Shown here one piece after another: positions 3,590-60,866 of a stretch of 64,000 nucleotides of DNA; position 1 is the stretch's first letter; each line of letters opens with the position of its first letter. Under the pieces are notes generated by a model. The model ran no database searches and was not told the DNA's origin. It was given only the letters and a program-made list of their open reading frames with translations. Where the stretch lies: positions 229,460-293,459 of the forward strand of contig CAZXML010000001.1 in NCBI GenBank assembly GCA_964641245.1. The letters run 5' to 3'. Source of the DNA: an uncultured Gammaproteobacteria bacterium (GTDB lineage: Bacteria > Patescibacteriota > Patescibacteriia > Magasanikbacterales > GWA2-37-8). Made by a program: the position numbers and the translations under genes.

Positions 3590-3751
3590 TTTGTCATTGC
3601 GACCCGTCAAGCGGGGAAGCAATCCTATCCACAGCTCACTCACTCTCTCCCCTACAAGGGGAGAGATAAAGAGAGGGGTTTATCGTTAAAATGTTAGCTT
3701 AACAACAACCAAAACCCCCTCTACTGTTCTCCCCCTTATAGGGGGAGAAAC
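3590..3751. repeat. Composite of repeat-element fragments (family B end, GC-hairpin fragment, two family C GGGGAGAG hairpins).
   Basis: The region contains tgtcattgcgac...gcaatcc and caagcggggaa. It also contains ctctctcccctacaaggggagag...gaggggtttatcg and cccctctactgttctcccccttatagggggagaaacc, which match pieces found at 36272, 32251 and 47041. Confidence 0.6.
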
Positions 3752-4540
3752 CTACTTCAAAAAACCTATATACCATTGTAAAATCCGCTCTCCCCACAAC
3801 ATAGCTACAAACGTACCAAGCGCGAGGTACGTTCCAAACGGAATGGCGCTGGAAAGATGCTTTTTGCGGGATGCCAGGAGTAATAAGCCGACAAAAGCTC
3901 CGACTACATACGCGATAAATAAAGCCACCAGCGTTACCGGCCAGCCCAACCAAATGCCCATCATGACACCAAGTCTAACATCTCCTCCTCCTATCCATTT
4001 TCCGCTGGAAATGACGTATTGTAAAAAGAAAAATCCTCCGGCGATTAGCGCGCCGATTAGCATTGATAACAAGCTATGTCCCAAGAAAATATTAAAAAAT
4101 AATCCGGCCAGAGCGCCAAACCAAATTACCTGGGGTAAAATTTCCTGATACAAATAATCGTAGATAAAAATTACAATGAGCAAGGATACAAAGGTAAAAT
4201 CCCGCAAAAAAAGCGCAGGCTCAACTGCCCCGCTGTTTAAATTTTTCCAGGCCACAAGCACAAAAATTAAGGCCGTGCCAAACTCTACAAAAGAAAAGTG
4301 TTTGGGAATTGCCGCTTTACATGTTCGGCATTTCCCCCATAACACTAAATAACTCAAAACCGGAATATTTTCGTACCAGGTAAGCTGACGCCGGCAGGCG
4401 GGGCACATACTGCGGCCGTTAACAATTTTAAAATTTTCGTGAGCGCGCCAAATCCAGGAGTTTAAAAAACTGCCCAGCGCGAGGCCGAGGAAAAAAATTA
4501 TAAAGTAAAAAAATTGCCCGATATCGTCCAAGTAATTCAT
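3752..4540 (-). CDS. pilD: Type IV prepilin peptidase (A24 family, PilD-like).
   Basis: 262 aa polytopic membrane protein with an N-terminal CPxC...CxxC zinc motif (MCPACRR...CRTC) and a conserved A24 layout. It lies adjacent to the pilin gene. Confidence 0.8.
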   Translation of the reverse strand: MNYLDDIGQFFYFIIFFLGLALGSFLNSWIWRAHENFKIVNGRSMCPACRRQLTWYENIPVLSYLVLWGKCRTCKAAIPKHFSFVEFGTALIFVLVAWKNLNSGAVEPALFLRDFTFVSLLIVIFIYDYLYQEILPQVIWFGALAGLFFNIFLGHSLLSMLIGALIAGGFFFLQYVISSGKWIGGGDVRLGVMMGIWLGWPVTLVALFIAYVVGAFVGLLLLASRKKHLSSAIPFGTYLALGTFVAMLWGERILQWYIGFLK

Positions 4541-5065: not shown

Positions 5066-5152
5066 AGTTTCACCCCCTCTCCATAATTAATTCTGACATC
5101 ATTTTGCATACTTGGATTACATTAGACACGTCGCCATCATTTCATCACTGTG

Positions 5153-5236
5153 GAGTATTAAGTATTAGGTAGTAAGTATTATGCGACAATTTCGACTTGT
5201 ACGCTTAATACATAATACTTGATACTTAATACTAAA
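5153..5236. repeat. Family D element: inverted arrays of the heptamers (AAGTATT)n ... (AATACTT)n.
   Basis: Sequence gagtattaagtattaggtagtaagtatt...cttaatacataatacttgatacttaatact. Near-identical elements lie at 20182-20270 and 50955-51031. Confidence 0.7.
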
Positions 5237-5715: not shown

Positions 5716-6867
5716 TTAAACAATATTCCGTAACGCCAAACCAATGGCCACGGACATGCGCGGCCCTATTTGGCGCAAAATCGGTTTCAACCCCTCCTGA
5801 TATACGACTCTGGCCCAAGAATCTCCTACATATGTTTTAATTTTAAATTTTTCTTGAATATACTTTGCCAGAAACGGCATCAAGGCCATTCCGCCGGTTA
5901 AAATAATTTTTTCGGGGCGCTTGCCTTCATTGCCGGTTTGACGCAAATATAATTCCAAACTGACTTCTACCTCCTTCATTATAGGATCTACCACCGGCAT
6001 TAAAATGTCCAGCCATTTTTGTTCGGTTAATATATTATTACTGGTCGCGGCCAGATAGTCAAATAAATCATGCTTAGCCTGCTCAACTAGATCGCGTTCA
6101 ACCCCTAAAATATTTTGTAAAACCTTGTCTATTTTATCGCCACCCGATTCTATGCTTTGATGAGTAATTGGCATGCCCTGGTCTATTATAAAAAAGTTTG
6201 TGCGTTCGGAACCGATGTCTATTATCATAGATAACGCCTGATCCCTGCCAACCAAACATCGAGACAAGGCCGTTGATTCGGGTTCCAACGCCTCTAAAGA
6301 CAATCCGGCGCGCTGGAAAATTTTGGAATAAAATTCTATGAGTTTATGCGGTACGGCATTTACCAAAACCCGCTGTGATTTATCTTCGGGCAAACCTTTT
6401 AACACCTGATAATCCAAGGCCATTTCTTCTAAAGGCATGGGCAATAATTTTTTTACTTCCGCTTTAACAATATGATCTAGTTCTTCTTTCTTTAATATAG
6501 GAAGCGTAACCACCGCGTGAAAAACAGATGAAACCGGCAGGCTGACAACCGCAGTTTTGGATATTATTCGAGACGATTTGCAAATCGCCTTAAGAGTGTT
6601 CGCGTATTTTTCTATTTGCGCCTCGTTGTCACCCTCCCCTTTTAGGGGAGGGACAGAGGGTGGGGTATTCGCGGAGTTTTGTTTCTCTAAAAGACCGGCG
6701 ATATTTTTTTCTTCATTGGCCGCAAGTTTATGGATATCCTGTTTGCCGGATGTTAAACCGTACGAAAACAAAACCGGCCTGTTTTTTTCCAGGCGTAATT
6801 CTACTAATTTTATTCCCCCGGACCCGATGTCTACTCCGAGAAAGGATTTTGGTTTATTCCAAAACAT
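5716..6867 (-). CDS. pilM: Type IV pilus assembly ATPase-fold protein PilM.
   Basis: N-terminus FLGVDIGSGGIKLVELR has an actin-like/PilM fold with acetate-kinase-like phosphate loops. It contains an in-frame ~45 nt repeat-derived insertion (NTPPSVPPLKGEGD). Confidence 0.75.
   Translation of the reverse strand: MFWNKPKSFLGVDIGSGGIKLVELRLEKNRPVLFSYGLTSGKQDIHKLAANEEKNIAGLLEKQNSANTPPSVPPLKGEGDNEAQIEKYANTLKAICKSSRIISKTAVVSLPVSSVFHAVVTLPILKKEELDHIVKAEVKKLLPMPLEEMALDYQVLKGLPEDKSQRVLVNAVPHKLIEFYSKIFQRAGLSLEALEPESTALSRCLVGRDQALSMIIDIGSERTNFFIIDQGMPITHQSIESGGDKIDKVLQNILGVERDLVEQAKHDLFDYLAATSNNILTEQKWLDILMPVVDPIMKEVEVSLELYLRQTGNEGKRPEKIILTGGMALMPFLAKYIQEKFKIKTYVGDSWARVVYQEGLKPILRQIGPRMSVAIGLALRNIV
6628..6675. 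repeat. Family C (GGGGAGRG hairpin) element copy lying in-frame inside pilM.
   Basis: ccctccccttttaggggagggacagagggtggggtattcgcgg aligns with 47050 (ctctccccttttaggggagagacagagagaggggtatcgcgg). Confidence 0.65.
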
Positions 6868-11422: not shown

Positions 11423-11535
11423 TTGTCATCCTGAACGTAGTGAAGGATCTCTGTCCGTCGTTTTTTTGCAAACCAGACAGAGATTCTTCTCCGTCCCGCC
11501 TAGGCAGGCGGATCAGAATGACAATTGACGAAACC
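11423..11535. repeat. Family A TGTCAT-type palindromic element (MITE-like).
   Basis: ttgtcatcctgaacgtagtgaaggatctctgtc...gacagagattcttc...cagaatgacaa. Confidence 0.8.
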
Positions 11536-11604
11536 CTGTATGAGTTATGGGTAAATACATTATACCACATTGTTGGCATACTTAAAATATGTTATAATAA
11601 TAAC

Positions 11605-12090
11605 ATGGCAATTGAACCTAAGGAATCAAATTTATCACCAATAACGGAAACAGAAATTAAGGCTCCACCCGAAGAGCTTGATTTGCAATTGGAAAAAGAG
11701 AGCGCCGAGGAAACAGAACCGGCGGAAGAAAAATTACCTCCGAAGCAAGTTAGCCCGCAACCGGCGCGGCCAATGCCAAAGCCAAGACCGGCCATGCCAC
11801 TGCCCGCCAAAGACGCAGTCATGGTCAAAATAGAAAAAATAATGGAAGAGGGGCTGAACGATTCTTTTCAACGTTTATCCCCTGTTGCCAAGCAGGAATT
11901 TAAATTAAAGGGCGAACAAGCGGCTTCTCAAATCAGAGAACTATTAAAAAGCACCCACGTAAAGGTTAAAAAAATCCTGCGTCTTATTTTGGATTGGTTA
12001 AGAATTCTGCCGGGCGTAAATCATTTTTTTCTAGAACAGGAGGCAAAAATAAAAACAGACAAAATTATCGCTTTAAAAAACAAAGTCTAA
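11605..12090 (+). CDS. Hypothetical Pro/Glu-rich protein.
   Basis: Probable true start MAIEPKESNL at 11605. The ORF-track start at 11440 lies inside the repeat element. No recognisable domains. Confidence 0.45.
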   Translation: MAIEPKESNLSPITETEIKAPPEELDLQLEKESAEETEPAEEKLPPKQVSPQPARPMPKPRPAMPLPAKDAVMVKIEKIMEEGLNDSFQRLSPVAKQEFKLKGEQAASQIRELLKSTHVKVKKILRLILDWLRILPGVNHFFLEQEAKIKTDKIIALKNKV

Positions 12091-12096
12091 TTCAAC

Positions 12097-12164
12097 TGTC
12101 ATGCTGAACTTGTTTCAGCATCTACACACAAGACTAAAGATCCTGAAACAAGTTCAGGATGACA
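12097..12164. repeat. Family A' twin-hairpin element (TGTCATGCTGAA...TTCAGGATGACA).
   Basis: tgtcatgctgaacttgtttcagcatct...agatcctgaaacaagttcaggatgaca. A direct copy lies at 14725-14790 and a third at 34243-34304. Confidence 0.85.
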
Positions 12165-12168
12165 AAAT

Positions 12169-14718
12169 ATGGATATTACTGTTATAACAGATTTTCTCAA
12201 CAATTTGCTGGCGAACAGTCTTTTTCTTTTATTATTTCCTCCCGCTTTTGGCCTAATTATTTTAATTTCTTTTTTATTTATTTTAAAATCAGTCTTTACG
12301 GCAAAAGGGCGCGAAAGCAAGGCTTTTCATAAAACAGTGCTGTTAATAAAAGTTCCTAAAGAAAAAAAGGGTGAAAAACCGGATTCAACCAGCGCGGAAG
12401 CCAATCTTAATCAAACCCGCGAAGAAGTAGCCGTGGCCGAAACTCTTTTCTCGGCCATAGCCGGTTTAAAAAGAGAAAGCGGTTTTATGGCCTGGTTGCG
12501 AGGCCGGAACGATCATGTTTCATTCGAAATTGTGGTAAAGGACAGCAAAATATCTTTTTATGTGGCCATGCCGGATAAAATTAAAGGTTTTCTGGAACAG
12601 CAAATTCACGCTCAATATCCTCATGCCGAAATCACCGAAGAACCGGACTACAATATTTTCAAACCGCAAAGCCATATTGTCGGCGCTTATCTTTGGTTAA
12701 AACACAAATCGGCTTTCCCGATTAAAACATACAAAAATCTGGAAGGAGACCCTTTGATTTCTCTGCTCAATCCGCTAAGTAAAATTCTGGAAGACGAAGG
12801 AGCTATAATTCAGGTTGTAGCGCGTCCGGCTACCACTAAATGGCGCAGTCAGGGTGTCCGCATGATTCGTGATATTAAAAAAGGAGAAAAATTTGAATAC
12901 GTTGCCAGACGCGGCAAAATAGGTCGCGCTATGGCCGGGTGGACAAAGGTAATTTTCCCAAAAAAGAAAGAGAACAGCGAACATCAAGGTGAAAAACAAT
13001 ACCAACTCACCCAAATGGAAGAAGAGATGGTGAAAAACATGGAAGAAAAAATAAGCCGGGGGGGACTGGAAACCACTATTCGATTGATAAGTTCGGCCAA
13101 CAGCAAAGAAAAGGCTGTGCTTAATCTGGAAAACATTATCAACGCTTTTAGTCAATATAATTTGTACCGCTACGGCAATACTTTTGCGGCCGCTGTTCCC
13201 CGCAAGCCCAACGCTCTCATCCGCGATTCTATTTACCGCACCATGCGTGAGGATAAATATATGGTTTTGAGTACGGAAGAAATGGCCGGTTTGTGGCACT
13301 TGCCTACTCCCAGCACCGAAACTCCCAACATCAACTGGCTGGGCGCGCGCAAGGCTCCGCCACCAACAAATATGCCCAAAGAAGGCATTATTTTGGGCCG
13401 GGCCGTATACCGCGGCGAAGAAACAGTCGTGCGCATGAAACGCGACGACCGGCGCCGACATTTATATACTATTGGTAAATCCGGTAGCGGTAAATCCGTA
13501 TTTATTCAAAATTTAGCTGTTCAGGATATTATTAACGGCGAAGGCGTTTGCGTTATAGACCCGCACGGAGATTTCGCCGAATATGTTTTACAGCACGTGC
13601 CAAAAGAAAGAGCCGAAGATGTTATTTATTTCAATCCTTCCGACACCGAACGTCCGATTGGTTTAAACATGCTGGAAATAAATACCGAGGAACAAAAAGA
13701 TTTTGCCACCCAGGAAATGATTGCAATTTTTTACAGACTGGTAACGGACCCAAGCATGATTGGCCCGATGTTTGAACACAATATGCGCAACGTAATGTTG
13801 ACTCTGATGGCCGACATGGTAAACCCAGGCACAATTGCCGAAATTCCCCGCATGTTTACCGATGATGATTTTGTAAAAGAATGGAAAGCGAAACTTACGG
13901 ACCCGATGGTACTGGCTTTCTGGGATAAAGAAATGGCCAAAACATCCGACTTCCATAAATCGGAAATGCTGGGTTATTTGATTTCTAAGGTGGGACGGTT
14001 TGTGGAAAACGCCATGATCCGCAATATCATCGGCCAGTCACACTCCGGGTTTAATTTCCGCGAAATAATGGATAAGAAAAAAATTCTGATTGTAAATTTG
14101 GCCAAAGGTTTGGTGGGAGAAATAAACTCCAACCTATTGGGTTTAATAATTGTTTCCAAACTGCAGATGACCGCATTGGAGCGCGCATCTATGCCGGAAG
14201 AACAACGCAATGATTTTTATTTATACATAGATGAGTTCCAAAACTTTATCACCGAATCTATTGCCACTATTCTTTCCGAAGCGCGCAAATATCGTTTGGA
14301 GCTTATCATTGCGCATCAATATATGAAACAACTGGAAGACAATAAAGGTAAAACCACTGTGCGTGATGCCGTTTTGGGAAATGCCGGCACCATAGTTTCT
14401 TTCCGTATTGGCGTAGAAGACGCGGAAATTTTGGCTAAAGAATTCGCTCCGGTGTTTAGCGCCTACGATTTGGTGAACGTGGAGCAATATACCGCTTACG
14501 CCAAACTTTTAATTGACAATACCGCCGCTAAGCCGTTTAATATGTTTACCTATCCGCCCCGTGCCGGCAACAAAGAGCTGGCTGCAGCCATCAAAGAACT
14601 CTCCAGGCTGAAGTACGGACGGCCCAGAGAAATTGTGGAAGCGGAAATAAATGAACGCGCGCAGTTGGGTGTAGCTGTGTCTGAAGGAGAAACGACTACG
14701 AGCGAGGCGACACTTTAA
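12169..14718 (+). CDS. Membrane-anchored type IV secretion-like ATPase (VirB4/TraC-VirD4 superfamily, AAA_10/TraG-D_C-like C-terminal half).
   Basis: 849 aa with N-terminal TM helices. Walker A TIGKSGSGKS falls near residue 447 and Walker B is YLYIDEFQNF. The post-Walker-B motif ARKYRLELIIAHQYMKQL fits the (A)RK...hhhh(T/H)Q...QL signature of T4SS ATPases. The N-terminal ~440 aa are paralogous to 18610-20013. Confidence 0.6.
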   Translation: MDITVITDFLNNLLANSLFLLLFPPAFGLIILISFLFILKSVFTAKGRESKAFHKTVLLIKVPKEKKGEKPDSTSAEANLNQTREEVAVAETLFSAIAGLKRESGFMAWLRGRNDHVSFEIVVKDSKISFYVAMPDKIKGFLEQQIHAQYPHAEITEEPDYNIFKPQSHIVGAYLWLKHKSAFPIKTYKNLEGDPLISLLNPLSKILEDEGAIIQVVARPATTKWRSQGVRMIRDIKKGEKFEYVARRGKIGRAMAGWTKVIFPKKKENSEHQGEKQYQLTQMEEEMVKNMEEKISRGGLETTIRLISSANSKEKAVLNLENIINAFSQYNLYRYGNTFAAAVPRKPNALIRDSIYRTMREDKYMVLSTEEMAGLWHLPTPSTETPNINWLGARKAPPPTNMPKEGIILGRAVYRGEETVVRMKRDDRRRHLYTIGKSGSGKSVFIQNLAVQDIINGEGVCVIDPHGDFAEYVLQHVPKERAEDVIYFNPSDTERPIGLNMLEINTEEQKDFATQEMIAIFYRLVTDPSMIGPMFEHNMRNVMLTLMADMVNPGTIAEIPRMFTDDDFVKEWKAKLTDPMVLAFWDKEMAKTSDFHKSEMLGYLISKVGRFVENAMIRNIIGQSHSGFNFREIMDKKKILIVNLAKGLVGEINSNLLGLIIVSKLQMTALERASMPEEQRNDFYLYIDEFQNFITESIATILSEARKYRLELIIAHQYMKQLEDNKGKTTVRDAVLGNAGTIVSFRIGVEDAEILAKEFAPVFSAYDLVNVEQYTAYAKLLIDNTAAKPFNMFTYPPRAGNKELAAAIKELSRLKYGRPREIVEAEINERAQLGVAVSEGETTTSEATL

Positions 14719-14724
14719 TTAATT

Positions 14725-14790
14725 GTCATGCTGAACTTGTTTCAGCATCTGCTTAAGAACGAAAGATCCTGAAACAAGTTCAGGATGACA
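14725..14790. repeat. Family A' element, direct copy of 12097-12164.
   Basis: tgtcatgctgaacttgtttcagcatct...agatcctgaaacaagttcaggatgaca. Confidence 0.85.
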
Positions 14791-14796
14791 TTGCGT

Positions 14797-16383
14797 ATGA
14801 GTACGATCTACCGTAAATACCGGCCTCAATTATTTAGTGATATTGTTGGGCAACAGCATATTATAAAAACGGTTATTAACGAAATAACTGCCGGTAAGAT
14901 AGCGCACGCCTATCTTTTTTGCGGTCCCCGCGGAACGGGGAAAACCACTTTGGCCAGATTGCTCGCCAAGTCCATAAATTGCGCAAACAGAAAAGAAAAA
15001 GACAGCGAGCCGTGCGGTACGTGTTCGTCGTGCGCGGAGGTTACAGACGGCCGCAATATAGATGTGATAGAAATAGACGCGGCGTCGCACACGGGCGTAG
15101 AAAATATGCGCGAAAATATTATAGAAAACGCGCAATTTAAACCCACCAAATCAAAATATAAAGTATTTATCATCGACGAAGTGCACATGCTTTCCACCGG
15201 CGCCTTTAACGCGTTACTTAAGACGCTGGAAGAACCGCCCGCCCACGTAATTTTTATTCTGGCCACTACCGAACAACAAAAACTACCGGCCACCATTATT
15301 TCCCGCTGTCAGCGTTTTAATTTCAAAAGAGTCGGCTATGAAGATATGATGAAACGTCTGGGCGAAATTTGTAAAAGTGAAAAAGTAAAAGTAGACAAAG
15401 AAGTTTTGGAACGCGTTATAAATAAAAGCGATGGCTGTATGCGCGACGCCGAAAGTTTGCTAGGGCAAGTATTAAGTTTGGATTTGAAGAGCATTAGCCC
15501 GGAAGACGCGGAAATGATTTTGCCCACCTCCGGCATTCAAACAGTGCTGGAGTTTATAAATTTTATTTTAGAGAAACAAACCGCGGAAGCCATAAAAATG
15601 ATTCAAAATCTGGTTTCAGACGGCGTGAACCTGGAACAATTTGCTTACGATACACTGGAGGCTCTGCGACTTCTTATGATTCTACAGGTTGATCCACAGG
15701 CCAAAAATATCAACACCGATTACAGCGATGAGGCTCTAAAATCACTCAAAAAAACCGGTCTTAAAATTTCCGCCCAACATTTGGTAAAAATGATTGAAGC
15801 GTTAATTATCCGACGTCGGGATATTAAGTCATCGCCAATGCCGCAATTGCCGTTGGAGCTGTTTGTGGTGGAGTTTACGTGCGCTCCTGACCGCCACTTC
15901 GACGACACACCGATTGTCATTCTGACGAAGGAAGAATCTATACCGATAAAAAAAAATAGTATAGATCCCTCGTCGGCTACGGCCTCGCTCGGGATGACAA
16001 ACAATACAATCACCCAAACCATAAAAGACACCATCTCCAACCTTACCCACAAGCAAATTAAAACCACTTTAGAGGACATAAAAGCAAAATGGAATGACGT
16101 TATCCGGGAAATTTCCAAGGAAAACCATTCCCTTAGTTTCATTTTAAAAATGAGCAATCTTTTGGCTGTAGACGATGATGGTCTTAAAATCTCCGTCCCC
16201 TACTCTTTCCACAAAGATAAGCTGGAAGAAAATAAAACCAAAAAAACCATAGAACAGACCCTGACGAACTTTTTTTCGGAACGCATATTTTTACAATGCG
16301 AGGTTGTAGAAAGCCGGGTACAAACAAATAACGATGACGACTTAAATAAATTGGCTGCGGACTTTGGAGGGAATGTTGTATGA
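14797..16383 (+). CDS. dnaX: DNA polymerase III subunit gamma/tau.
   Basis: MSTIYRKYRPQLFSDIVGQQHI is followed by the Walker A GPRGTGKTT, the zinc module CGTCSSC and the DEVHML box. The ATG at 14785 lies within the repeat (ggATGACA), so the second ATG at 14797 is preferred. Confidence 0.9.
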   Translation: MSTIYRKYRPQLFSDIVGQQHIIKTVINEITAGKIAHAYLFCGPRGTGKTTLARLLAKSINCANRKEKDSEPCGTCSSCAEVTDGRNIDVIEIDAASHTGVENMRENIIENAQFKPTKSKYKVFIIDEVHMLSTGAFNALLKTLEEPPAHVIFILATTEQQKLPATIISRCQRFNFKRVGYEDMMKRLGEICKSEKVKVDKEVLERVINKSDGCMRDAESLLGQVLSLDLKSISPEDAEMILPTSGIQTVLEFINFILEKQTAEAIKMIQNLVSDGVNLEQFAYDTLEALRLLMILQVDPQAKNINTDYSDEALKSLKKTGLKISAQHLVKMIEALIIRRRDIKSSPMPQLPLELFVVEFTCAPDRHFDDTPIVILTKEESIPIKKNSIDPSSATASLGMTNNTITQTIKDTISNLTHKQIKTTLEDIKAKWNDVIREISKENHSLSFILKMSNLLAVDDDGLKISVPYSFHKDKLEENKTKKTIEQTLTNFFSERIFLQCEVVESRVQTNNDDDLNKLAADFGGNVV

Positions 16384-20181: not shown

Positions 20182-20270
20182 TAAGTATTAAGTATTAAGT
20201 ATTACGTATAAAGTATTATGAATCAAATATCGCTTTTACCTTAATACTTAATACATGATACTTGATACAA
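20182..20270. repeat. Family D heptamer inverted-array element.
   Basis: ctaagtattaagtattaagtattacgtataaagtatt...ccttaatacttaatacatgatacttgataca. Confidence 0.7.
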
Positions 20271-23395: not shown

Positions 23396-23518
23396 ATTAA
23401 GCTTTCTTTCTGCCTCCTCTATATCTTTGGCAATGGTCGCGCCGGTTTCTACCCGCTTTATCGCCTTTAAGTGTTCCTTTATTTTATCCTCTTCAGTACT
23501 GTTTGGAGAAATTTGTTA

Positions 23519-23624
23519 GGAACAGCCACTTAAGCGAGTTGGGATGTGTCATATGCCGGTACTTTACCCTGCTTCAGGAGCTTTACCGAGAAGCGCGGGG
23601 TGTTACCGATGTATCTCATCTTCT
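23519..23624. mobile_element. Solo left-end remnant (~106 bp) of the IS481-family element, inverted relative to the full copy at 36961.
   Basis: Its reverse complement matches 36961-37070 at ~93% identity, including the first 12 codons of the transposase (MTHPNSLKWLFL). No transposase body follows. Confidence 0.75.
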
Positions 23625-23631
23625 GCATTAT

Positions 23632-23690
23632 CCACAACTAAAACCTCCCCGGTTAAATCAGGGAGGTTTTAGTTGTGGCTCTATTTTTTA
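23632..23690 (+). terminator. Perfect 18-bp-stem hairpin followed by a T-run.
   Basis: ccacaactaaaacctccc cggttaaatca gggaggttttagttgtgg ctctatttttta. It abuts the IS-end remnant and the GGDEF gene stop. Confidence 0.55.
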
Positions 23691-28311: not shown

Positions 28312-28357
28312 ATCTTGAAAATTTCTAATTATTAATTTCTAATAACCAGTGTCAAAT

Positions 28358-28460
28358 TGTCATCCTGAATGTAATGAAGGATCTCTGTCTCAATCGCCAA
28401 ACGGACAGAGATTCTTCGCTTCACTCAGAATGACAAATGACGTGTGACCTGAATGACAGT
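28358..28460. repeat. Family A TGTCAT-type element.
   Basis: ttgtcatcctgaatgtaatgaaggatctctgtctcaatcgccaaacggacagagattcttcgcttcactcagaatgacaa differs by 1 nt in the core from the copy at 60740. Confidence 0.85.
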
Positions 28461-28468
28461 TAAAAAAT

Positions 28469-29201: not shown

Positions 29202-29315
29202 TTGTCATCCTGAATGAAATGAAGGATCTCTGTCCGTTTAGCTGTCATTCCCATAACAATGGGAATCCAGACAATCATCGATTCGACTGGATTCCCGCTT
29301 TGGCGGGAATGACAA
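29202..29315. repeat. Family A half-element fused to a family E element (TGTCATTCCC...GGGAATGACAA).
   Basis: cttgtcatcctgaatgaaatgaaggatctctgtc is followed by tgtcattcccataacaatgggaatcc...ggattcccgctttggcgggaatgacaa. Confidence 0.75.
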
Positions 29316-30844: not shown

Positions 30845-30877
30845 TTGTCATCCTGAATGAAATGAAGGATCTCTGTC
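30845..30877. repeat. Family A half-element.
   Basis: ttgtcatcctgaatgaaatgaaggatctctgtc. Confidence 0.7.
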
Positions 30878-31041
30878 TACTCTTGCGCCTTTGCCACTGC
30901 GTCTTCTTCGTCGTAGCCTTCGTCTTCCAATTTCTCAACCTTTTTGGCTTCTTTTTCGTCTAAATCAAATTCGTCCATTAATTCGTGGACATCTTCGGCC
31001 AAATCGTCGGCTGGTTTTTTGTCGTCGTCGTCATTTTGCAT
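30878..31041 (-). CDS. Possible 54-aa highly acidic protein.
   Basis: MQNDDDDKKPADDLAEDVHELMDEFDLDEKEAKKVEKLEDEGYDEEDAVAKAQE. The stop abuts the repeat half-element. Confidence 0.3.
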
Positions 31042-31113: not shown

Positions 31114-31223
31114 TTGTCATTCTGAGTGAAACGAAGAATCTCTGTCTGGTTGGCCAACGCGATACTGACAGATATCCTTCACGGAGTTTACACTGAACGC
31201 AGTGAATGTGTTCAGGATGACAA
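31114..31223. repeat. Family A-related TGTCAT element (divergent).
   Basis: ttgtcattctgagtgaaacgaagaatctctgtc...tgttcaggatgacaa. Confidence 0.7.
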
Positions 31224-31232
31224 TCGATGATG

Positions 31233-32198
31233 TTATACGTCCCACTTAAAACCATTGCCGTAGCTACCCCACTCGGCGGTTTTTTCGAATTGGGGTTGGC
31301 GGAGTTCCAGGAAATCTATTATTCCCTGCGGGGATAAATCATAACCGGATATGGAAAAATCTACAGCTTCGTTGGTGGTTGGGCGGGTGACGGAAACCAT
31401 AACCGGTTGTTTTTTGCCGATGGCGTAAGCCAGCTTAACCATCACTTCTCCGCCAACTTTTTTCACCGCGTCTACCGCTATTTTGCGCGCCATATAGGCG
31501 CCACTGCGGTCTACTTTGGTGCCGTCTTTGCCGGAATAGGCGCCACCGCCAACCGGAACTTGCGGGCCATAAGCGTCACAAATAATTTTTCGGCCGGTGA
31601 CGCCGGTGTCCGCGTCAAATCCGCCGATGTCCCAATCGCCGGCCGGGTTGGCGTAGATGGATAATTCGGAATCCACTTCTTTGCCTTTAAACCATTCAAA
31701 AATTATATCGCGCAGTTCGGAAGATTTTGCTTTGTGAAAACTGGCCACCACGCTGCAGATTTTTCCGTCGCGCAATGTGATTTGAGTTTTTCCATCATTG
31801 GGGAATTTGGCATAGATTAATTTGTTTAAATTCCGCGCCAAATATAATTCTTGTGGAACGAATTCTTCGTTTGCGTCGCAGGCATAGCCAACCATTATTC
31901 CCTGATCGCCCGCCCCGCCTACATCCACTCCTTGGGCAATCTCTGAACTCTGTTGAACAATATTTGTATTCACCTGATATTGTTCGCCGGCCACGCGCTT
32001 GGCAATTTGCGCGGCGTCGATTTTTGCGTTAGTGGTAAGTTCGCCGGTAAGAGTGATAAGTCCGTGACCGCCCATGCTTTCCATAGCCACCCGGCTATGC
32101 GGATCCTGTTCTAAACAAGCGTCTAAAATAGCGTCCGATATTCTGTCGCAAATTTTATCCGGGTGACGCGGCGAAACCGATTCGGCTGTGATGAGCAT
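31233..32198 (-). CDS. metK: S-adenosylmethionine synthetase (compact, 321 aa).
   Basis: ESVSPRHPDKICDRISDAILDA, GAGDQGIMVGYA, TGRKIICDAYG and GGGAYSGKDGTKVDRSGAYMAR are present. Confidence 0.9.
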   Translation of the reverse strand: MLITAESVSPRHPDKICDRISDAILDACLEQDPHSRVAMESMGGHGLITLTGELTTNAKIDAAQIAKRVAGEQYQVNTNIVQQSSEIAQGVDVGGAGDQGIMVGYACDANEEFVPQELYLARNLNKLIYAKFPNDGKTQITLRDGKICSVVASFHKAKSSELRDIIFEWFKGKEVDSELSIYANPAGDWDIGGFDADTGVTGRKIICDAYGPQVPVGGGAYSGKDGTKVDRSGAYMARKIAVDAVKKVGGEVMVKLAYAIGKKQPVMVSVTRPTTNEAVDFSISGYDLSPQGIIDFLELRQPQFEKTAEWGSYGNGFKWDV

Positions 32199-32351: not shown

Positions 32352-32569
32352 ATTGACCTCGACCGAACAAATAAATTAAACAAAAAAACTTTCCTTGGCA
32401 GGAAAGAAAGTCGACCTTTATCTTTCCCCGTTGGGGCTAGATTTGGCACCTTATCCCGACTAAGTCGGGACAGGTTGTCGGCAGGTCTTAGGGCTAGTTC
32501 CCTCGCTGCACTCTTGATAACTATATCGTACCAGGTATTTCTTAATTATCAAAAAATACCTGGGGATAA

Positions 32570-33176: not shown

Positions 33177-34235
33177 CTATTTAGTTGTTGAAGTCAGTTC
33201 CGCAAACGGGTTATGAACGTTGATATATAAACGAATGTTGCCGTCTTTAGCCTGTTTGTCAAGATAGCTCATCAAGTCTTGGAATCGGAAAAGAACCTGG
33301 CTGGCACGGACCATCTCCTTATTCACCATTCTTCCCAGCTCATTCTTTACTCTTTCGGTTTTTTTGTCGTCTAATCTGATGATGTGGTAACCGTAAACAC
33401 TCTCTACCAGAGTCGGATTGATTTCACCTTTTTTTAAAGCGAAAGCGGCTTTTTCAAATTCCGGCACCATTTCTCCTTTTCCAAACCAGCCCAAATCACC
33501 GCCGCGTTCACCGGTACTGTCGGTATTATATTTTGTGGCCAGTGCGGCAAAATCCGAGCCGTTTTTTACCTCTTCCAAAACTTTTTCGGCTTGAGCCTTT
33601 AATTCTTCTTTCATTTTTGTATCATCTTTTAATTTTTGCGCCAATTTTGTCTGTAAAATAAACGGACGCATTACTTTTTGTTCGTAGACAGCCATTGTCC
33701 AGCCGTAACGCTTGGTTAATTCTTCGTTGGCGGCCGCTTCATCTTTAAATTGTTGCAACATTTGCGCTTTTAAAGTTTCCACATCTTTATCTTCGGCTAC
33801 CACTTCAAATTTTTTGGCGGCTTCTTGCACCAATAAATTATTTACCAAACGCCACAAAACTTGGTCGGTCATTTGCTCTTCGGTAAGATCGGCTCCGGGA
33901 CTTCTGTCCGGGGCAATACCGGCTTCTCTTTGCGCTTTATCATAATCGCGCATGACGGTGATGGCTTTTAAATCTTCCACGAATGCGACGTAAGGAATTT
34001 TTTCATTTCCTACTTTTAGAACCGGCAAATTTAACGCCTTGGCAACGGCCAGACTGAATTTATCGGTAGCTGTTTTGGCGTATACTTTATAAATACCCAA
34101 ACCGGCAATTGCGCCAACCACAACTACGGCCACACCCAGCCAAACATAACGCTTCATAGAAGCATTTAACGTTTTTGGGCTCTCCGGTGTGTTTTTAATT
34201 TCCACATTTCCTCCTGCCAAATTTTGCTCGTCCAT
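33177..34235 (-). CDS. PpiC/parvulin-type peptidyl-prolyl isomerase (PrsA/SurA-like), membrane anchored.
   Basis: The C-terminal parvulin domain DLGWFGKGEMVPEFEKAAFALKKGEI...YGYHIIRL follows an N-terminal TM helix. Confidence 0.8.
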   Translation of the reverse strand: MDEQNLAGGNVEIKNTPESPKTLNASMKRYVWLGVAVVVVGAIAGLGIYKVYAKTATDKFSLAVAKALNLPVLKVGNEKIPYVAFVEDLKAITVMRDYDKAQREAGIAPDRSPGADLTEEQMTDQVLWRLVNNLLVQEAAKKFEVVAEDKDVETLKAQMLQQFKDEAAANEELTKRYGWTMAVYEQKVMRPFILQTKLAQKLKDDTKMKEELKAQAEKVLEEVKNGSDFAALATKYNTDSTGERGGDLGWFGKGEMVPEFEKAAFALKKGEINPTLVESVYGYHIIRLDDKKTERVKNELGRMVNKEMVRASQVLFRFQDLMSYLDKQAKDGNIRLYINVHNPFAELTSTTK

Positions 34236-34242
34236 ATTTATA

Positions 34243-34304
34243 TCATAGTTGTCATGCTGAATTTATTTCAGCATCTAATCGGTATAGATCCTGAAACAAG
34301 TTCA
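34243..34304. repeat. Family A' twin-hairpin element.
   Basis: tgtcatgctgaatttatttcagcatct...agatcctgaaacaagttcaggatgac. Confidence 0.8.
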
Positions 34305-34312
34305 GGATGACG

Positions 34313-34699
34313 TTAGTTAGTAAAATACTGCCACCATTTTTTATAATTTGAAATATTGCTTAATCCTATCATACTGTTATTTTCTTGTCTATTGCCTTTG
34401 ACTTCGGCTTTCGGCACCACCAAAACCTGCTCGCCAGGCTTCACCATATTTAATTCCGTGCGCGCTTTTTCTTCCGCAAAACTGTCGGACTTTACATATT
34501 TAAGCACTTCCAATAATTCCATTTTTTTGGCCTGCAAATTTTTGGCCTGATCCTGCAAGTTCCGTATTTCCTGCGTCACCAAATAATCCTGATAATACGC
34601 CCGCGCGTATCCAAACATCACCATCATGGCAATAATGGTGGCCGCAAACATAAATAATCGGGAGCCTAAAATAATTTTCCAACCGGCGTCTTTTGCCAT
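34313..34699 (-). CDS. FtsB/DivIC-like septum formation initiator.
   Basis: TM helix, coiled coil and ARTELNMVKPGEQV (FtsB signature). Start MAKDAGW at 34699 is preferred. The ORF-track extension to 34750 is encoded by the repeat element. Confidence 0.6.
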   Translation of the reverse strand: MAKDAGWKIILGSRLFMFAATIIAMMVMFGYARAYYQDYLVTQEIRNLQDQAKNLQAKKMELLEVLKYVKSDSFAEEKARTELNMVKPGEQVLVVPKAEVKGNRQENNSMIGLSNISNYKKWWQYFTN

Positions 34700-34713
34700 T
34701 GATTTAAAGTTAC

Positions 34714-34795
34714 TTGTCATCCTGAATGAAATGAAGGATCCCTGTCTCAATCGACAATGACGGACAGAGATTCTTCGCTTTGCTCAGAATGACAA
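34714..34795. repeat. Family A TGTCAT-type element.
   Basis: ttgtcatcctgaatgaaatgaaggatccctgtctcaatcgacaatgacggacagagattcttcgctttgctcagaatgacaa. Confidence 0.85.
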
Positions 34796-35472: not shown

Positions 35473-35577
35473 TTGTCATCCTGAACGGAGTGAAGGATCT
35501 CTGTCCGTATAGTTTTCACCAACCAGACAGAGATTCTTCGCTTTGCTCAGAATGACAGTTACGTACGGGATGACAAT
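35473..35577. repeat. Family A TGTCAT-type element plus an extra terminal fragment.
   Basis: ttgtcatcctgaacggagtgaaggatctctgtc...gacagagattcttcgctttgctcagaatgacag, followed by ttacgtacgggatgacaatgc. It supplies the last 6 codons and the stop of the Mur ligase gene. Confidence 0.8.
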
Positions 35578-36896
35578 GCGGATAACACTTCTCTGGCAAC
35601 ACGGCGGTCATCCCAAACAATTTTCTTTCCCCCGGCCACCGCAATATACGGCTCCGTGCCTTTGGCGGTAATAACCACCACGTCTCCGGCTTGAGCCAAG
35701 GAAACGGCTTTAATTATTGCCTGACGACGGTCCACAATCACAAACAAGTCTGCATTGTCTTTTTTTCCGGACGAACGCGCGCCAACCGCCAGCATTTCGG
35801 CAATTTGTTCCGGATCTTCATCGTAACAGTTCACATCTGTAATTATAACATAATCGGTTAATTTACCTGCTATTTGCCCCATAGATTCTCTTTTGCTTTT
35901 GTCGCGACCGCCGCCGTCGGACCCAACCACCGCAATAATTTTGTGGTCATGACCAACCATTTCACGCAAACTTTTAAACAATTCGGTTAAACTTACGGGT
36001 TCGTGCGCATAATCTACTATCACCTTAAAATTTTGTCCTTCATCAATTAATTCCATTCTGCCCTCCACTAATTTTACGCTCGCCAACCCTTCGGCAATTT
36101 TCTCATCGGAAATTTTCTGCGCCCTGCCCACCGCAATCGCAGCCAGCGCGTTGTAAACGTTAAACCGGCCGATTATATTTAATCTGAATTTTTTGCCACC
36201 GACTGTAAAATCAGAACCATTCTGATCGGAAACGATATTTTCTCCGCTTAATAATTTTGTCGCGCTGTTTTTGTCATTGCGAGGAGCTAAAAGCGACGTG
36301 GCAATCCCATTGTTGGCACTACCAGTACTGTGGGATTGCTTCGCTTTGCTCGCAATGACAGAAAACGCCCACTTCTCCACCGCCGGAAAACTCAAAAAAT
36401 AATCCGCATGCTCATCATCCGTATTAGCAACAATTGTTTTTGCTTTCGCAAAAATTTTGGCTTTGTCTTTTTTTAGATTATCAAATCCACCGTGGCGTTC
36501 CGAATGTTCGGTTCCTAAATTAGTAAACACCGCCGTATGGTAATTCAATCCGATATGCCGGTACTGCAAAATTCCTTCCGAAGATGTTTCCACCACCGCG
36601 TATTTGCACCCGGCTTTTACCATTTGTTTTAATAAACTCTGAATTTTCCCTCGCCCTAGCATGGTCATTTTTTTATCGTTCAGCCAGCGCTTATTGGCCA
36701 CCTGAAATTCTACGGTGCTTAGTAGCCCAACTTTATTTCCTCCCGCTTCTAAAACAGACGCAATAAGCCGGCAAGTGGTAGACTTGCCCTTGGTGCCGGT
36801 TACCCCAATCACAGTTAATTTTCGGGCCGGCCGGCCATACCACCAATAAGCGGACCAGGCCAATAAAAAATGAAGGATTTTCTTAAAAAAAGACAT
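35559..36896 (-). CDS. Mur ligase family protein (MurE-like UDP-N-acetylmuramoyl-tripeptide ligase).
   Basis: VIGVTGTKGKSTT (P-loop), DYAHEPVSL and AKGTEPY motifs are present. It carries a ~30-aa in-frame repeat-encoded insertion (SVIASKAKQSHSTGSANNGIATSLLAPRND). Confidence 0.75.
   Translation of the reverse strand: MSFFKKILHFLLAWSAYWWYGRPARKLTVIGVTGTKGKSTTCRLIASVLEAGGNKVGLLSTVEFQVANKRWLNDKKMTMLGRGKIQSLLKQMVKAGCKYAVVETSSEGILQYRHIGLNYHTAVFTNLGTEHSERHGGFDNLKKDKAKIFAKAKTIVANTDDEHADYFLSFPAVEKWAFSVIASKAKQSHSTGSANNGIATSLLAPRNDKNSATKLLSGENIVSDQNGSDFTVGGKKFRLNIIGRFNVYNALAAIAVGRAQKISDEKIAEGLASVKLVEGRMELIDEGQNFKVIVDYAHEPVSLTELFKSLREMVGHDHKIIAVVGSDGGGRDKSKRESMGQIAGKLTDYVIITDVNCYDEDPEQIAEMLAVGARSSGKKDNADLFVIVDRRQAIIKAVSLAQAGDVVVITAKGTEPYIAVAGGKKIVWDDRRVAREVLSALSSRT
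36272..36360. repeat. Family B element (GTCATTGCGAGGAG...GCTCGCAATGACA) lying in-frame inside the Mur ligase gene.
   Basis: tgtcattgcgaggagctaaaagcgacgtggcaatcccattgttggcactaccagtactgtgggattgcttcgctttgctcgcaatgaca. Intergenic copies lie at 52370 and 53868. Confidence 0.85.
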
Positions 36897-36960
36897 AAAA
36901 TTTATGGCTGATACCTAAAAATTATACCAAAAAAATGGCAAAATGACAAGCTGCATTATG

Positions 36961-38130
36961 TAGAAGATGAGATACATCGGTAACACTCCACGCTTCTCGG
37001 CAAAGCTCCTGAAGCAGGGTAAAGTACCGACATATGACACATCCCAACTCTCTTAAATGGCTGTTCCTGACCAAGGAAAAGCTACCACAGGTTTTTTTCA
37101 GAGACAACCAAAAGAAATTGCTTGCCCATCATGATCGTTGGCGGCGAACCGCAGGCCTCCTTAAATTATCCAAGGGCGCGAAGAGCCGCCTCGAGTGGAT
37201 GATATTTTATGAAACGAAAGGTGAGCGGAATGCTCGTTTAACTGCCAGGCATTTCGGCATCGTTCCCAAGACTTTTTATCAATGGCATAATCGCTTTGAT
37301 GAAGGCGACCTTAAAACGCTCGAAGAGCGTTCACGCGCGCCCGTTAGCAAACGGGTGCGGGAGTACACACCCCTCCAGTATGTCCGGGTAATTAAACTTC
37401 GCAAGGAACATATCCGGTGGGGCAAGATGAAGCTTTTAAAACTGTATCAAGATGACTTTCCAAAAGATGCAACAATTACCAGTTGGAAGGTTCAATGTAT
37501 TATTGAAGTATCCGGCATCTACTACCACCCTCAAAAACAAGCTAGAATCAACCGCAAACGCATATTGTCGGTGAAGCGGAAGAAGATTACTGACCTCGCC
37601 AAAAAACCACGGCAGGGTTTTTTGGTATGTCTCGACACAATCGTGCGTTATGTTGCCGGACAGAAGCGCTACATTTTGACGGCGATTGACCAATACTCAA
37701 AAATTACCTTTGGCCGAATGTACACGACACATAGCTCGGCAAACGCGAGGGACTTTCTTCACCGCCTCCACTATCTGCTTGACGGAAAGATTGAAAACAT
37801 TCAAACTGACAACGGCAGTGAATTCAAATTGCATTTTGATACGGCCTTAACGAAGTTGAATATTCCACACTACCATTCTCGGGTAAGGACACCAAAAGAT
37901 AACGCGGTGAACGAACGGTTCAATCGTACCCTAGATGAAGAATTCCTGGCTATGGGCAATCTGATGGCAGATACCGTTCTTTTTAACCAACGTCTGACTG
38001 AGTGGCTGGTAGAATACAACTTCAAACGTCCGCATCAATCTCTGGGGTATCTACCACCAATTAACTTTCATTTTAAATATCATAAAGTGTTACCGATGTA
38101 CCCGTCTAGTACAACTGATTGACACATCGC
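36961..38130 (+). mobile_element. IS481-family insertion sequence (single transposase ORF).
   Basis: Transposase 37034-38122 (362 aa) has an N-terminal HTH and an rve/DDE core (DNGSEF...RPHQSLGY). An imperfect terminal repeat core TACATCGGTAACACT lies at both ends. The left end is defined by comparison with the remnant at 23519-23624. The right boundary is approximate. Confidence 0.8.
37034..38122 (+). CDS. IS481-family DDE transposase.
   Basis: HTH, integrase core D...D...E region, DNGSEFK and KRPHQSLGYLPP are present. Confidence 0.85.
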   Translation: MTHPNSLKWLFLTKEKLPQVFFRDNQKKLLAHHDRWRRTAGLLKLSKGAKSRLEWMIFYETKGERNARLTARHFGIVPKTFYQWHNRFDEGDLKTLEERSRAPVSKRVREYTPLQYVRVIKLRKEHIRWGKMKLLKLYQDDFPKDATITSWKVQCIIEVSGIYYHPQKQARINRKRILSVKRKKITDLAKKPRQGFLVCLDTIVRYVAGQKRYILTAIDQYSKITFGRMYTTHSSANARDFLHRLHYLLDGKIENIQTDNGSEFKLHFDTALTKLNIPHYHSRVRTPKDNAVNERFNRTLDEEFLAMGNLMADTVLFNQRLTEWLVEYNFKRPHQSLGYLPPINFHFKYHKVLPMYPSSTTD

Positions 38131-47040: not shown

Positions 47041-47150
47041 TACCCAATCGCTCTCTCCCCTTTTAGGGGAGAGACAGAGAGAGGGGTATCGCGGATGTCG
47101 AATTACAAATACCCCCACCCTGCCCTCCCCCTAAATGGGGGAGGAACGAT
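47041..47150. repeat. Family C element (two GGGGAG hairpins).
   Basis: ctctctccccttttaggggagagacagagagaggggtatcgcg...ccctccccctaaatgggggagg. Confidence 0.7.
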
Positions 47151-50954: not shown

Positions 50955-51031
50955 GTATAAAGTATTAAGTATTAGGTATTAAGTATTTAACAAATATTCC
51001 CATAATACTTGATACATAATACTTAATACTT
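50955..51031. repeat. Family D heptamer inverted-array element.
   Basis: gtataaagtattaagtattaggtattaagtatt...cataatacttgatacataatacttaatactt. Confidence 0.7.
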
Positions 51032-51102
51032 CAAGAATAGTGTATCACTTATTTAATAACAAAACAACCCCAATTTTATAGGGATTGCTTTGAATTCAGG
51101 GG

Positions 51103-60720: not shown

Positions 60721-60845
60721 ATTGTCATCCCGAGCGAGTGGTTGTCATCCTGAATGTAATGAAGGATCTCTGTCTCAATCGCCGAACGGACAGAGATTCT
60801 TCGCTTCACTCAGAATGACAAGTGGTGTGCGGTCAGAATGACAAA
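60721..60845. repeat. Composite family A element with nested partial ends.
   Basis: ttgtcatcccgagcgagtgg is followed by ttgtcatcctgaatgtaatgaaggatctctgtctcaatcgccgaacggacagagattcttcgcttcactcagaatgacaa, then gtggtgtgcggtcagaatgacaa. Confidence 0.85.
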
Positions 60846-60866
60846 CAATAAAACAGAACGGCAGGT

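Follow-up and report, generated by a model that had tools for sequence, protein, structure and literature searches.

Inverted doublets of self-complementary hairpin arms in a Patescibacteria genome and their probable relation to Ssn nuclease targets

Ssn nucleases, their hairpin repeats and the A' elements

In the work of Chenal et al. (Nat Commun 2025, PMC11893778), the Ssn proteins, GIY-YIG endonucleases that measure about 94 aa, bind and cut NTS hairpin repeats (CGTCATTCCCGCGMAVGCGGGAATCYRG, or the variant CGTCATACTCGGG-N5-CCCGAGTATC) solely as single-stranded DNA; they accept neither the reverse strand nor duplex DNA nor RNA as substrate (PMC11893778). Binding requires the palindrome and, above all, the C that immediately follows it, and cleavage, which takes place a few nucleotides upstream, requires the three nucleotides before the palindrome (GTC, within CGTCAT) (PMC11893778). 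The ssn genes are typically flanked by the repeats in a motif-gene-motif arrangement, and the published SRM pattern, HGTCWYN(0-2)YYVSBRHN(0-5)WNVSBRGN(0-2)RNCYNB, is an operational search string obtained from 29 genomes rather than a biochemical definition (PMC11893778).

The DNA analysed here, referred to as the window, is a 64,000-nucleotide stretch of a Patescibacteria genome. It holds three copies of an element named A', at 12097-12164, 14724-14790 and 34250-34312, all in the same + strand orientation. The earlier note had reported the same pattern in three copies, which stands once the start of copy 3 is corrected from 34243 to 34250, and the conserved arm, consisting of (T)GTC, a palindrome and CT, is with its 26 nt longer than that note gave. 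The left arm reads GTC-ATGCTGAA-N5-TTCAGCAT-C and the right arm has an equal design with one G:C pair swapped to C:G, so that the whole element can be written as (T)GTC-ATGCTGAA-N5-TTCAGCAT-CT, a centre of 9-14 nt, and AG-ATCCTGAA-N5-TTCAGGAT-GAC(A). The palindromes lie at 12101-12121 and 12140-12160 in copy 1, at 14728-14748 and 14766-14786 in copy 2, and at 34254-34274 and 34288-34308 in copy 3. A mismatch-tolerant search of the window found exactly these six palindromes, against 0.38 expected; none of 100 shuffles reached six, and all six arms hold an 8-bp stem.

In copy 1, which runs from T-GTC to GAC-A, the left arm (12098-12123, + strand) consists of GTC, a stem of 12101-12108 and 12114-12121 (ATGCTGAA/TTCAGCAT) around the loop CTTGT, and CT. 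It is followed by a centre of 14 nt (12124-12137) that differs among the copies, and by the right arm (12138-12163), which on the - strand reads GTC-ATCCTGAA-CTTGT-TTCAGGAT-CT. The swapped pair is G12103-C12119 in the left arm and C12142-G12158 in the right one, confirming the claim that the G/C difference between the arms is compensated inside each of them. The arms of copies 1 and 2 agree at 52 of 52 positions, while the centres of these two copies are unrelated; the arms of copy 3 deviate from them solely at two positions of the left loop, where CTTGT becomes TTTAT.

Copy 1 lies 6 nt past the stop codon of ORF 11440-12090 and 4 nt ahead of the ATG at 12169. Copy 2 separates the stop codon at 14718 from the true dnaX start, which alignment fixed at 14797, and copy 3 lies past the stop of ORF 34313-34750 (-), ahead of the start of ORF 33177-34235 (-). 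The identical copies 1 and 2 bracket, in direct orientation, a single gene for a TraG/VirD4-like type IV secretion DNA-binding protein (12169-14718), and this copy-gene-copy segment (12097-14790) resembles the repeat-gene-repeat configuration that lowers transformation in Neisseria.

A' shares with the NTS/SRM repeats an oriented 5' (C/T)GTCAT head, an AT...AT palindrome and an immediate 3' C. On its own strand, each of the six A' arms reads (T)GTC-AT..., forms a hairpin from a semi-palindrome and ends in ...CAT-C or ...GAT-C, thus presenting the upstream GTC, the palindrome and the following C. Both kinds of repeat are mostly intergenic and occur in hundreds of copies over many phyla, and A'-type arms outside the window can flank, as inverted repeats, a single-domain GIY-YIG gene of about 94-107 aa. 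Unlike NTS, the palindrome core of A' is [G/C/T]CTGAA instead of TCCCGCG, its host belongs to the Patescibacteria (CPR), and the element is a tight doublet with a short variable centre, in a window that carries no nuclease gene and with arms that are known here from sequence alone. The published SRM pattern has no matches in the window, both A' arms fail it, and the NTS and NTSvar controls match; A' and its sibling arm families therefore fall outside the published operational definition. Among hairpins of the kind described in 2025, A' forms a new arm family, and its host phylum is new as well.

Two further types of palindromic repeat invite comparison. The dRS3 repeats of Neisseria NIMEs are 20-bp palindromes which, like the A' arms, bracket short variable intergenic segments. 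However, the A' arms do not fit the dRS3 definition ATTCCC-N8-GGGAAT, as their palindrome differs, and a NIME is a long mosaic built from many repeat units, in contrast to the one doublet of A'. The Rickettsia palindromic elements (RPE) are small and lie in frame in protein genes, which by description recalls the siblings of A' found in the window within dnaX and a Mur ligase gene; unlike RPE, the A' copies themselves are intergenic.

These siblings are numerous. A repeat search together with a simple scan counted 34 'GTCAY + stem + C' arms in the window, against about 5.5 in shuffles, and the sibling families share the TGTCAT...ATGACA ends and the twin-hairpin layout. In family A, an arm of the form GTC-ATCCT-GA-NN-GNA-NN-GA-AGGAT-CTCTGTC is joined to an ATTCT/AGAAT partner arm, the difference being again compensated within the arm. 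Its elements lie at 11423-11524, 28357-28467, 29202-29245, 30845-30888, 31114-31223, 34714-34795, 35473-35558, 46252-46333 and 60742-60852. Family A fills most intergenic gaps of the ftsX-murE region, with ATCCT/AGGAT as left arm, ATTCT/AGAAT as right arm and an inner CTCTGTC...GACAGAG helix. Six of the seven clear doublets share one + strand orientation, like all three A' copies, and the GC skew is negative over the whole window.

Another twin element, of the ATTCCC...GGGAAT type, occupies 29244-29313, with arms at 29247-29266 and 29291-29310 that fit Neisseria dRS3 (ATTCCC-N8-GGGAAT) without deviation and depart from the NTS consensus at 2 positions. This links the sibling families with the NTS/SRM class. 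The same element type is also present after the second GIY-YIG gene of the Magasanikbacteria MAG L248 (6581-6650). Elements of the ATTGCGAG family start at 36273, 52370 and 53868. The first of them (36273-36360) sits in frame within the Mur ligase gene (35559-36896, -), where it is translated as ...VIASKAKQSH...LLAPRNDK...; the Mur_ligase_M match, 225 residues long for a profile of 200 positions, agrees with an insertion of about 29 aa. Similarly, a twin element with ATTCT/AGAAT and ATCCC/GGGAT arms (15916-15998) lies in frame within the variable linker of dnaX and is translated as ...VILTKEES...DPSSATASLGMT...; at this point the relatives have unrelated sequence of other length.

Other repeats and features were also observed in the window. 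An inverted repeat of 123 nt, 91% complementary, has its arms 13 kb apart (23512-23634 and 36952-37074), one of them overlapping the start of ORF 37034-38122. An AT-rich repeat, AGTATTAAGTATTAGGTA ... CATAATACTTGATACTTAATACT, is present in three copies (5151-5236, 20190-20265 and 50961-51033), each internally palindromic and unrelated to the GTCAT elements, and a hairpin repeat, CTCTCTCCCCTTTTAGGGGAGAGACAGAGAGAGGGGT, in three more places (3635-3679, 6624-6666 and 47045-47087). A SAM riboswitch (RF00162, 55.8 bits) is encoded at 32415-32523 (-), upstream of the SAM synthetase-like ORF 31233-32198.

Selection on the hairpin of each arm

Covariation, which the earlier note had proposed to analyse over all genomic copies, was examined here in arms from public genomes. 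One genome per species was scanned for GTCATNCTGAANNNNNTTCAGNATC with the two questioned positions left free, which returned at least 120 loci, against some 17 chance matches calculated for the 18 fixed bases. Among the matches listed, the hosts include Sphingomonadaceae, Pedobacter and other Bacteroidota, Treponema, Saccharibacteria and other CPR groups, Nitrospirota and Elusimicrobiota, besides others. In the 158 arms among these matches, the free pair was G-C in 80, C-G in 53, T-A in 17, G.T or T.G in 3 and unpaired in 5; three pair types are therefore represented and the pair is Watson-Crick in 150 of 158.

The opposite arm of each element was chosen blind to structure, the first downstream RTGAC (5 nt) serving as the sole anchor. 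Among the matches listed, at least 7 of the 8 pairs could form in 80 of 112 partner 27-mers, with stems that include ACCCTGAA/TTCAGGGT, ATCCCGAA/TTCGGGAT, ATTCCGAA/TTCGGAAT and ATTGCGGG/CCCGCAAT. The 98 distinct partner arms among these matches show covariation at 7 of 8 stem pairs. Their cells are paired in 83.9% of cases, against 72.2% in shuffles and at most 52% in slid controls, and cells with a double change number 115, against 39 in shuffles. The covariation score of these 98 arms among the matches listed is 0.364, against 0.167 in shuffles, and none of 500 shuffles scored as high.

Both arms were compared in twin elements. The arms are non-identical (heterotypic) in 60 of 65 distinct twin elements, and the exact combination found in the window (ATGCTGAA with ATCCTGAA) is also present in 8 other twin elements. 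Of the 1040 stem positions in the 65 elements, 243 are not the same in the two arms, yet no more than 13 of 1040 local pairs are broken, and 109 pair positions are doubly compensated. So many arm differences with so few broken local pairs indicate selection on each arm's own hairpin and not on arm-to-arm pairing. The view that two stem-loops are under selection, instead of a terminal inverted repeat undergoing neutral decay, is thus borne out by the free pairs, by the covarying stem pairs and by the ratio of arm differences to broken pairs. Selection on two independent stem-loops is strongly supported and holds across phyla, and the swap of G:C to C:G is one among many compensated differences.

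Covariation extends into the loop. Positions 1 and 4 of the loop are C..G in 106, T..A in 45 and otherwise composed in 7 of the 158 arms among the matches listed; in the unconstrained arms among these matches, C-G occurs 54 and T-A 23 times, and the two positions pair in 85.6%, where shuffles give 64.8% and slid controls no more than 14%. The loop change of copy 3, from CTTGT to TTTAT, affects exactly this pair and is compensated. A pair closing a two-residue loop is documented for DNA minihairpins, as C-G or T-A (CTTG and TTTA loops), and is unusual in RNA. Family-A arms, studied in 120 metagenome contigs, follow the same principle: their Y/R pair is C-G in 75 and T-A in 58 arms without mismatches, one inner pair is G-C in 102, A-T in 30 and G.T in 1, and the other inner pair is C-G in 109, T-A in 13, T.G in 5 and otherwise composed in 6. 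A G-N-A triloop is found in 103 of 133 family-A arms, the tandem G.A pairs are invariant, and this purine-rich minihairpin is exclusive to the GTCAT strand. A test for strand specificity based on wobble pairs on the GTCAT strand gave 8 G.T against 5 A.C, a difference that is not significant.

The terminal TGTCAT...ATGACA inverted repeats of these elements, their small size and their insertion polymorphism would also suit an ordinary MITE whose terminal inverted repeats serve a DDE transposase, the palindromes being either incidental or operator-like sites of a dimeric protein that binds duplex DNA. This origin is very improbable. In 60 of the 65 twin elements the arms are unlike each other, yet each is self-complementary. 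Furthermore, the pairing of the basal stem is kept while its halves lie 9-35 nt apart, which argues against a fixed duplex site for a dimeric protein, and the loop pair sits off the axis of symmetry of the palindrome.

Folding energies and comparative data point in different directions. Taken alone as a single strand, the whole A' reaches its energy minimum as a long arm-to-arm hairpin with G.G and C.C mismatches, calculated at -22.9 kcal/mol for DNA and -35.2 for RNA, whereas two separate hairpins amount to about -13 (the single arms of copy 1 fold as DNA at -6.7 on the left and -6.1 kcal/mol on the right). An artificial homotypic version of A' folds at -31.4. The mismatches that the earlier note had expected from arm-to-arm pairing are thus present, but they amount to just two 1x1 mismatches and do not make the twin fold the preferred one: a fully single-stranded A' favours the long hairpin by about 9-10 kcal/mol. 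Thermodynamics gives no support to the twin fold, which is favoured by the comparative data.

The level at which the hairpins act had been placed by the earlier note in RNA, as a terminator or stabiliser, or in a DNA cruciform, and neither suggestion has been sustained. According to the first, the stem-loops would work in a polycistronic transcript as a terminator, a stabiliser or a processing site. The three A' copies do lie within strings of co-directional genes and are probably transcribed, their RNA folds strongly (z of about -8.5), and in copies 1 and 2 the right arm supplies an AGGA 9-11 nt ahead of the next start codon. Nevertheless, an RNA-level element is unlikely. An intrinsic terminator would show, on the sense strand, a G+C-rich hairpin with a U-tract behind it, and such a site is absent at all three A' copies: no T-run follows the stems on the transcribed strand of any copy, and the terminator-like calls are antisense and of the weak-tail kind only. 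An Rfam search, at the gathering threshold and at E<=1, assigned no family to the elements and gave a lone chance miRNA match with E = 0.69. The RNA minimum-energy fold is the long hairpin and not the twin hairpins, and the covarying pair that closes a two-nucleotide loop is, as mentioned, uncommon in RNA. Orientation to transcription is not constant, copy 3 being inverted relative to copies 1 and 2, and A'-type arms occur in every genomic context across phyla, where they enclose nuclease genes. The design of the arms is moreover that of single-stranded DNA targets, and RNA is not bound by SsnA (PMC11893778). A secondary effect on mRNA is possible. As for the cruciform, Ssn-type targets are not bound as duplex (PMC11893778), and stems of eight pairs appear too short for a convincing one.

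Insertion sites and association with GIY-YIG genes

The flanking protein, of 849 aa, assigns the organism to Candidatus Magasanikbacteria. The sites of copies 1 and 2 are both empty in the relatives L243-L247, in which this protein is 84-90% identical at the amino acid level. At the junction orthologous to copy 1, the relatives (L243/L244, L245 and L246/L247) have gaps of 1-31 nt without an element, and the gap orthologous to copy 2 measures 9-161 nt in L243-L247 and has unrelated content. Both copies are therefore recent, lineage-specific insertions. At the copy 2 site, L243 carries at 12550-12711 (5076-5237 in L244) another palindromic repeat (cgaaatccgaa ... ttcggatttcg), with no GTCAT head. 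Arm counts in L245-L247, which are 84-87% relatives, are 0-1 and thus at chance level, against 34 in the window. Similarly, the family-A element located between ftsX and ftsE is missing in L241, where the gap is 4 nt compared with 121 nt in the window; the boundaries of this insertion are blurred because extra partial arms are present. The elements occupy very small intergenic gaps, reaching almost exactly from the stop codon of one gene to the start codon of the next. Comparison of filled with empty sites revealed no target-site duplication at the three A' copies or at the empty sites, which speaks against the MITE origin considered above.

Neither tblastn nor hmmsearch detected a GIY-YIG ORF in the 64-kb window, and a GIY-YIG gene is also absent from about 90 kb of orthologous DNA of the relatives, so that the cognate nuclease of this genome is unseen. 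In the loci fetched with the arm patterns, on the other hand, single-domain PF01541 ORFs, 94-114 aa long, are enclosed by inverted arm pairs or adjoin arms. At least 10 of these loci have GIY-YIG genes inside or beside arm pairs, and in an eleventh (L007) the gene is about 6 kb from its arm.

Both arm types take part in this association. Among A'-type arms, Pedobacter L108 has an arm at 610 (+), a gene at 660-950 and an arm at 1035 (-), Pedobacter aquatilis L254 an arm at 654 (+), a gene at 701-994 and an arm at 1041 (-), and in L110 and L029 the arms adjoin or flank the GIY-YIG gene. Family-A arm pairs enclose GIY-YIG genes in L145, L147 and L187, and in two Magasanikbacteria MAGs: L248, with arm 5961 (+), gene 6001-6294 and arm 6325 (-), and L251, with arm 3937 (+), gene 3980-4279 and arm 4316 (-). 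The Pedobacter arm pair (ACCCTGAA with ATGCTGAA) is also the commonest gene-less doublet (17 of 65). The top-scoring named homologues of the L147 protein come from Candidatus Magasanikbacteria and other Patescibacteria. When compared with known families, the GIY-YIG proteins gave PF01541 alone in Pfam, and their sole solved relative is 1ZG2 (UPF0213, E = 8e-7); the PDB search returned no SsnA structure that would link the arm-enclosed proteins directly to SsnA.

The neighborhoods of some of these genes were also recorded. In Magasanikbacteria RIFOXYD2_FULL_41_14 (L251 3937-5837 and L252 2633-4533), the arm-ssn-arm unit is located immediately upstream of comEC, the DNA-uptake channel gene. Two different GIY-YIG genes in tandem, followed by a PIF1-family helicase gene, are found at L147 6428-8707 and L248 6001-8340. 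This order is conserved between the two Magasanikbacteria-like contigs, and the stop codon of the first gene lies inside an arm (…TCA GGA TGA C).

The genes found between arms of this kind in the fetched loci are GIY-YIG nucleases alone, with no transposase, a further point against a DDE-driven MITE, and they also bear on the resemblance to REP sequences. Like REP, BIME and REPIN elements, A' is a gene-less, intergenic pair of inverted and slightly different hairpins (compare the Y and Z REPs), and, as in the REP/REPIN-RAYT system, it has a relative in which hairpins flank the gene of a single-strand-specific enzyme. Short hairpins set as inverted doublets, with intergenic location, high copy number and variable linker, are precisely the REPIN architecture, and a REP/REPIN-like doublet moved by a RAYT, an IS200/IS605-type Y1 transposase, in place of a GIY-YIG nuclease could be imagined. 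Such an origin has very little chance of being correct. The enzyme associated with the arms is a GIY-YIG nuclease and not a Y1 (HUH) transposase, as it is GIY-YIG genes and not RAYT genes that accompany the arm pairs in the at least 10 pattern-fetched loci, and the conserved head is GTCAT instead of the GTAG type of REPs. Likewise, tblastn with IS200/IS608 TnpA probes found no Y1 transposase-like sequence in 1.7 Mb (the window and the fetched loci), a weak negative. In IS200/IS605 elements the ends are recognised as single-stranded DNA hairpins and cleaved a short distance away, which by analogy may also apply to A'. However, their hairpins lie on one strand at both ends, whereas the A' arms are true inverted repeats with one 'sense' motif per strand. 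The REP/RAYT and DDE-MITE readings each fail a defining feature.

Proposed mode of action and significance

The explanation that probably holds is that A' is a doublet of inverted, non-identical Ssn-related (NTS/SRM-like) hairpins, the gene-less counterpart of the arm-ssn-arm units. By analogy with the Neisseria system, the level at which it acts is most likely single-stranded DNA recognised by an Ssn-type nuclease. Each arm would provide one motif, composed of 5'-GTC, an 8-bp palindrome that starts and ends in AT, and C. When the strand reading 5'-GTCAT... becomes exposed as single-stranded DNA, it would fold into an 8-bp hairpin, in which a ninth pair, C-G or T-A, closes a loop of 2 nt. A cognate GIY-YIG single-strand endonuclease of about 95-107 aa would then bind the palindrome and the 3' C and, judging from NTS and SsnA, cut a few nucleotides 5' of GTC, a point that on each strand falls immediately beyond the element. 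Since SsnA is sequence-specific, a different cognate enzyme is assumed for the A'-type arms. The doublet would stand to the arm-ssn-arm unit as a MITE or a REPIN stands to its parent, given that the same inverted heterotypic arm pairs enclose the nuclease gene, and the nuclease may drive the spread of the element. The compensated differences would preserve the hairpin of each arm and, at the same time, keep both arms from forming a perfect long palindrome.

A bolder and more doubtful proposal is that the arm-ssn-arm units are autonomous mobile elements of a mechanistic class not yet described, driven by the GIY-YIG nuclease, with no transposase or recombinase, that the A' doublets are their non-autonomous derivatives, that the difference between the arms is a functional rule, and that such elements colonise a minimal CPR genome. 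If this were true, the arm difference, seen in 60 of 65 twin elements, would mark which end is left and which is right, guard against a lethal perfect palindrome, or both, and the elements would enter the minimal CPR genome with single-nucleotide precision, in the gaps that separate a stop codon from the next start codon and even, in frame, within essential genes.

Under the probable explanation given first, the Ssn/hairpin-repeat system reported in 2025 is much broader than the published search pattern conveys: at least two more families of arms, one of CTGAA type and one of GA-bracketed minihairpin type, are spread over many phyla including Patescibacteria, and current annotation would miss them. 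Covariation gives clean evidence that what is selected is each arm's local hairpin, together with the pair that closes its loop. The filled and empty sites, together with the gene-carrying counterparts, make nuclease-linked mobile hairpin doublets a testable idea, and in the annotation of CPR genomes the elements account for many spurious small ORFs and odd in-frame insertions.
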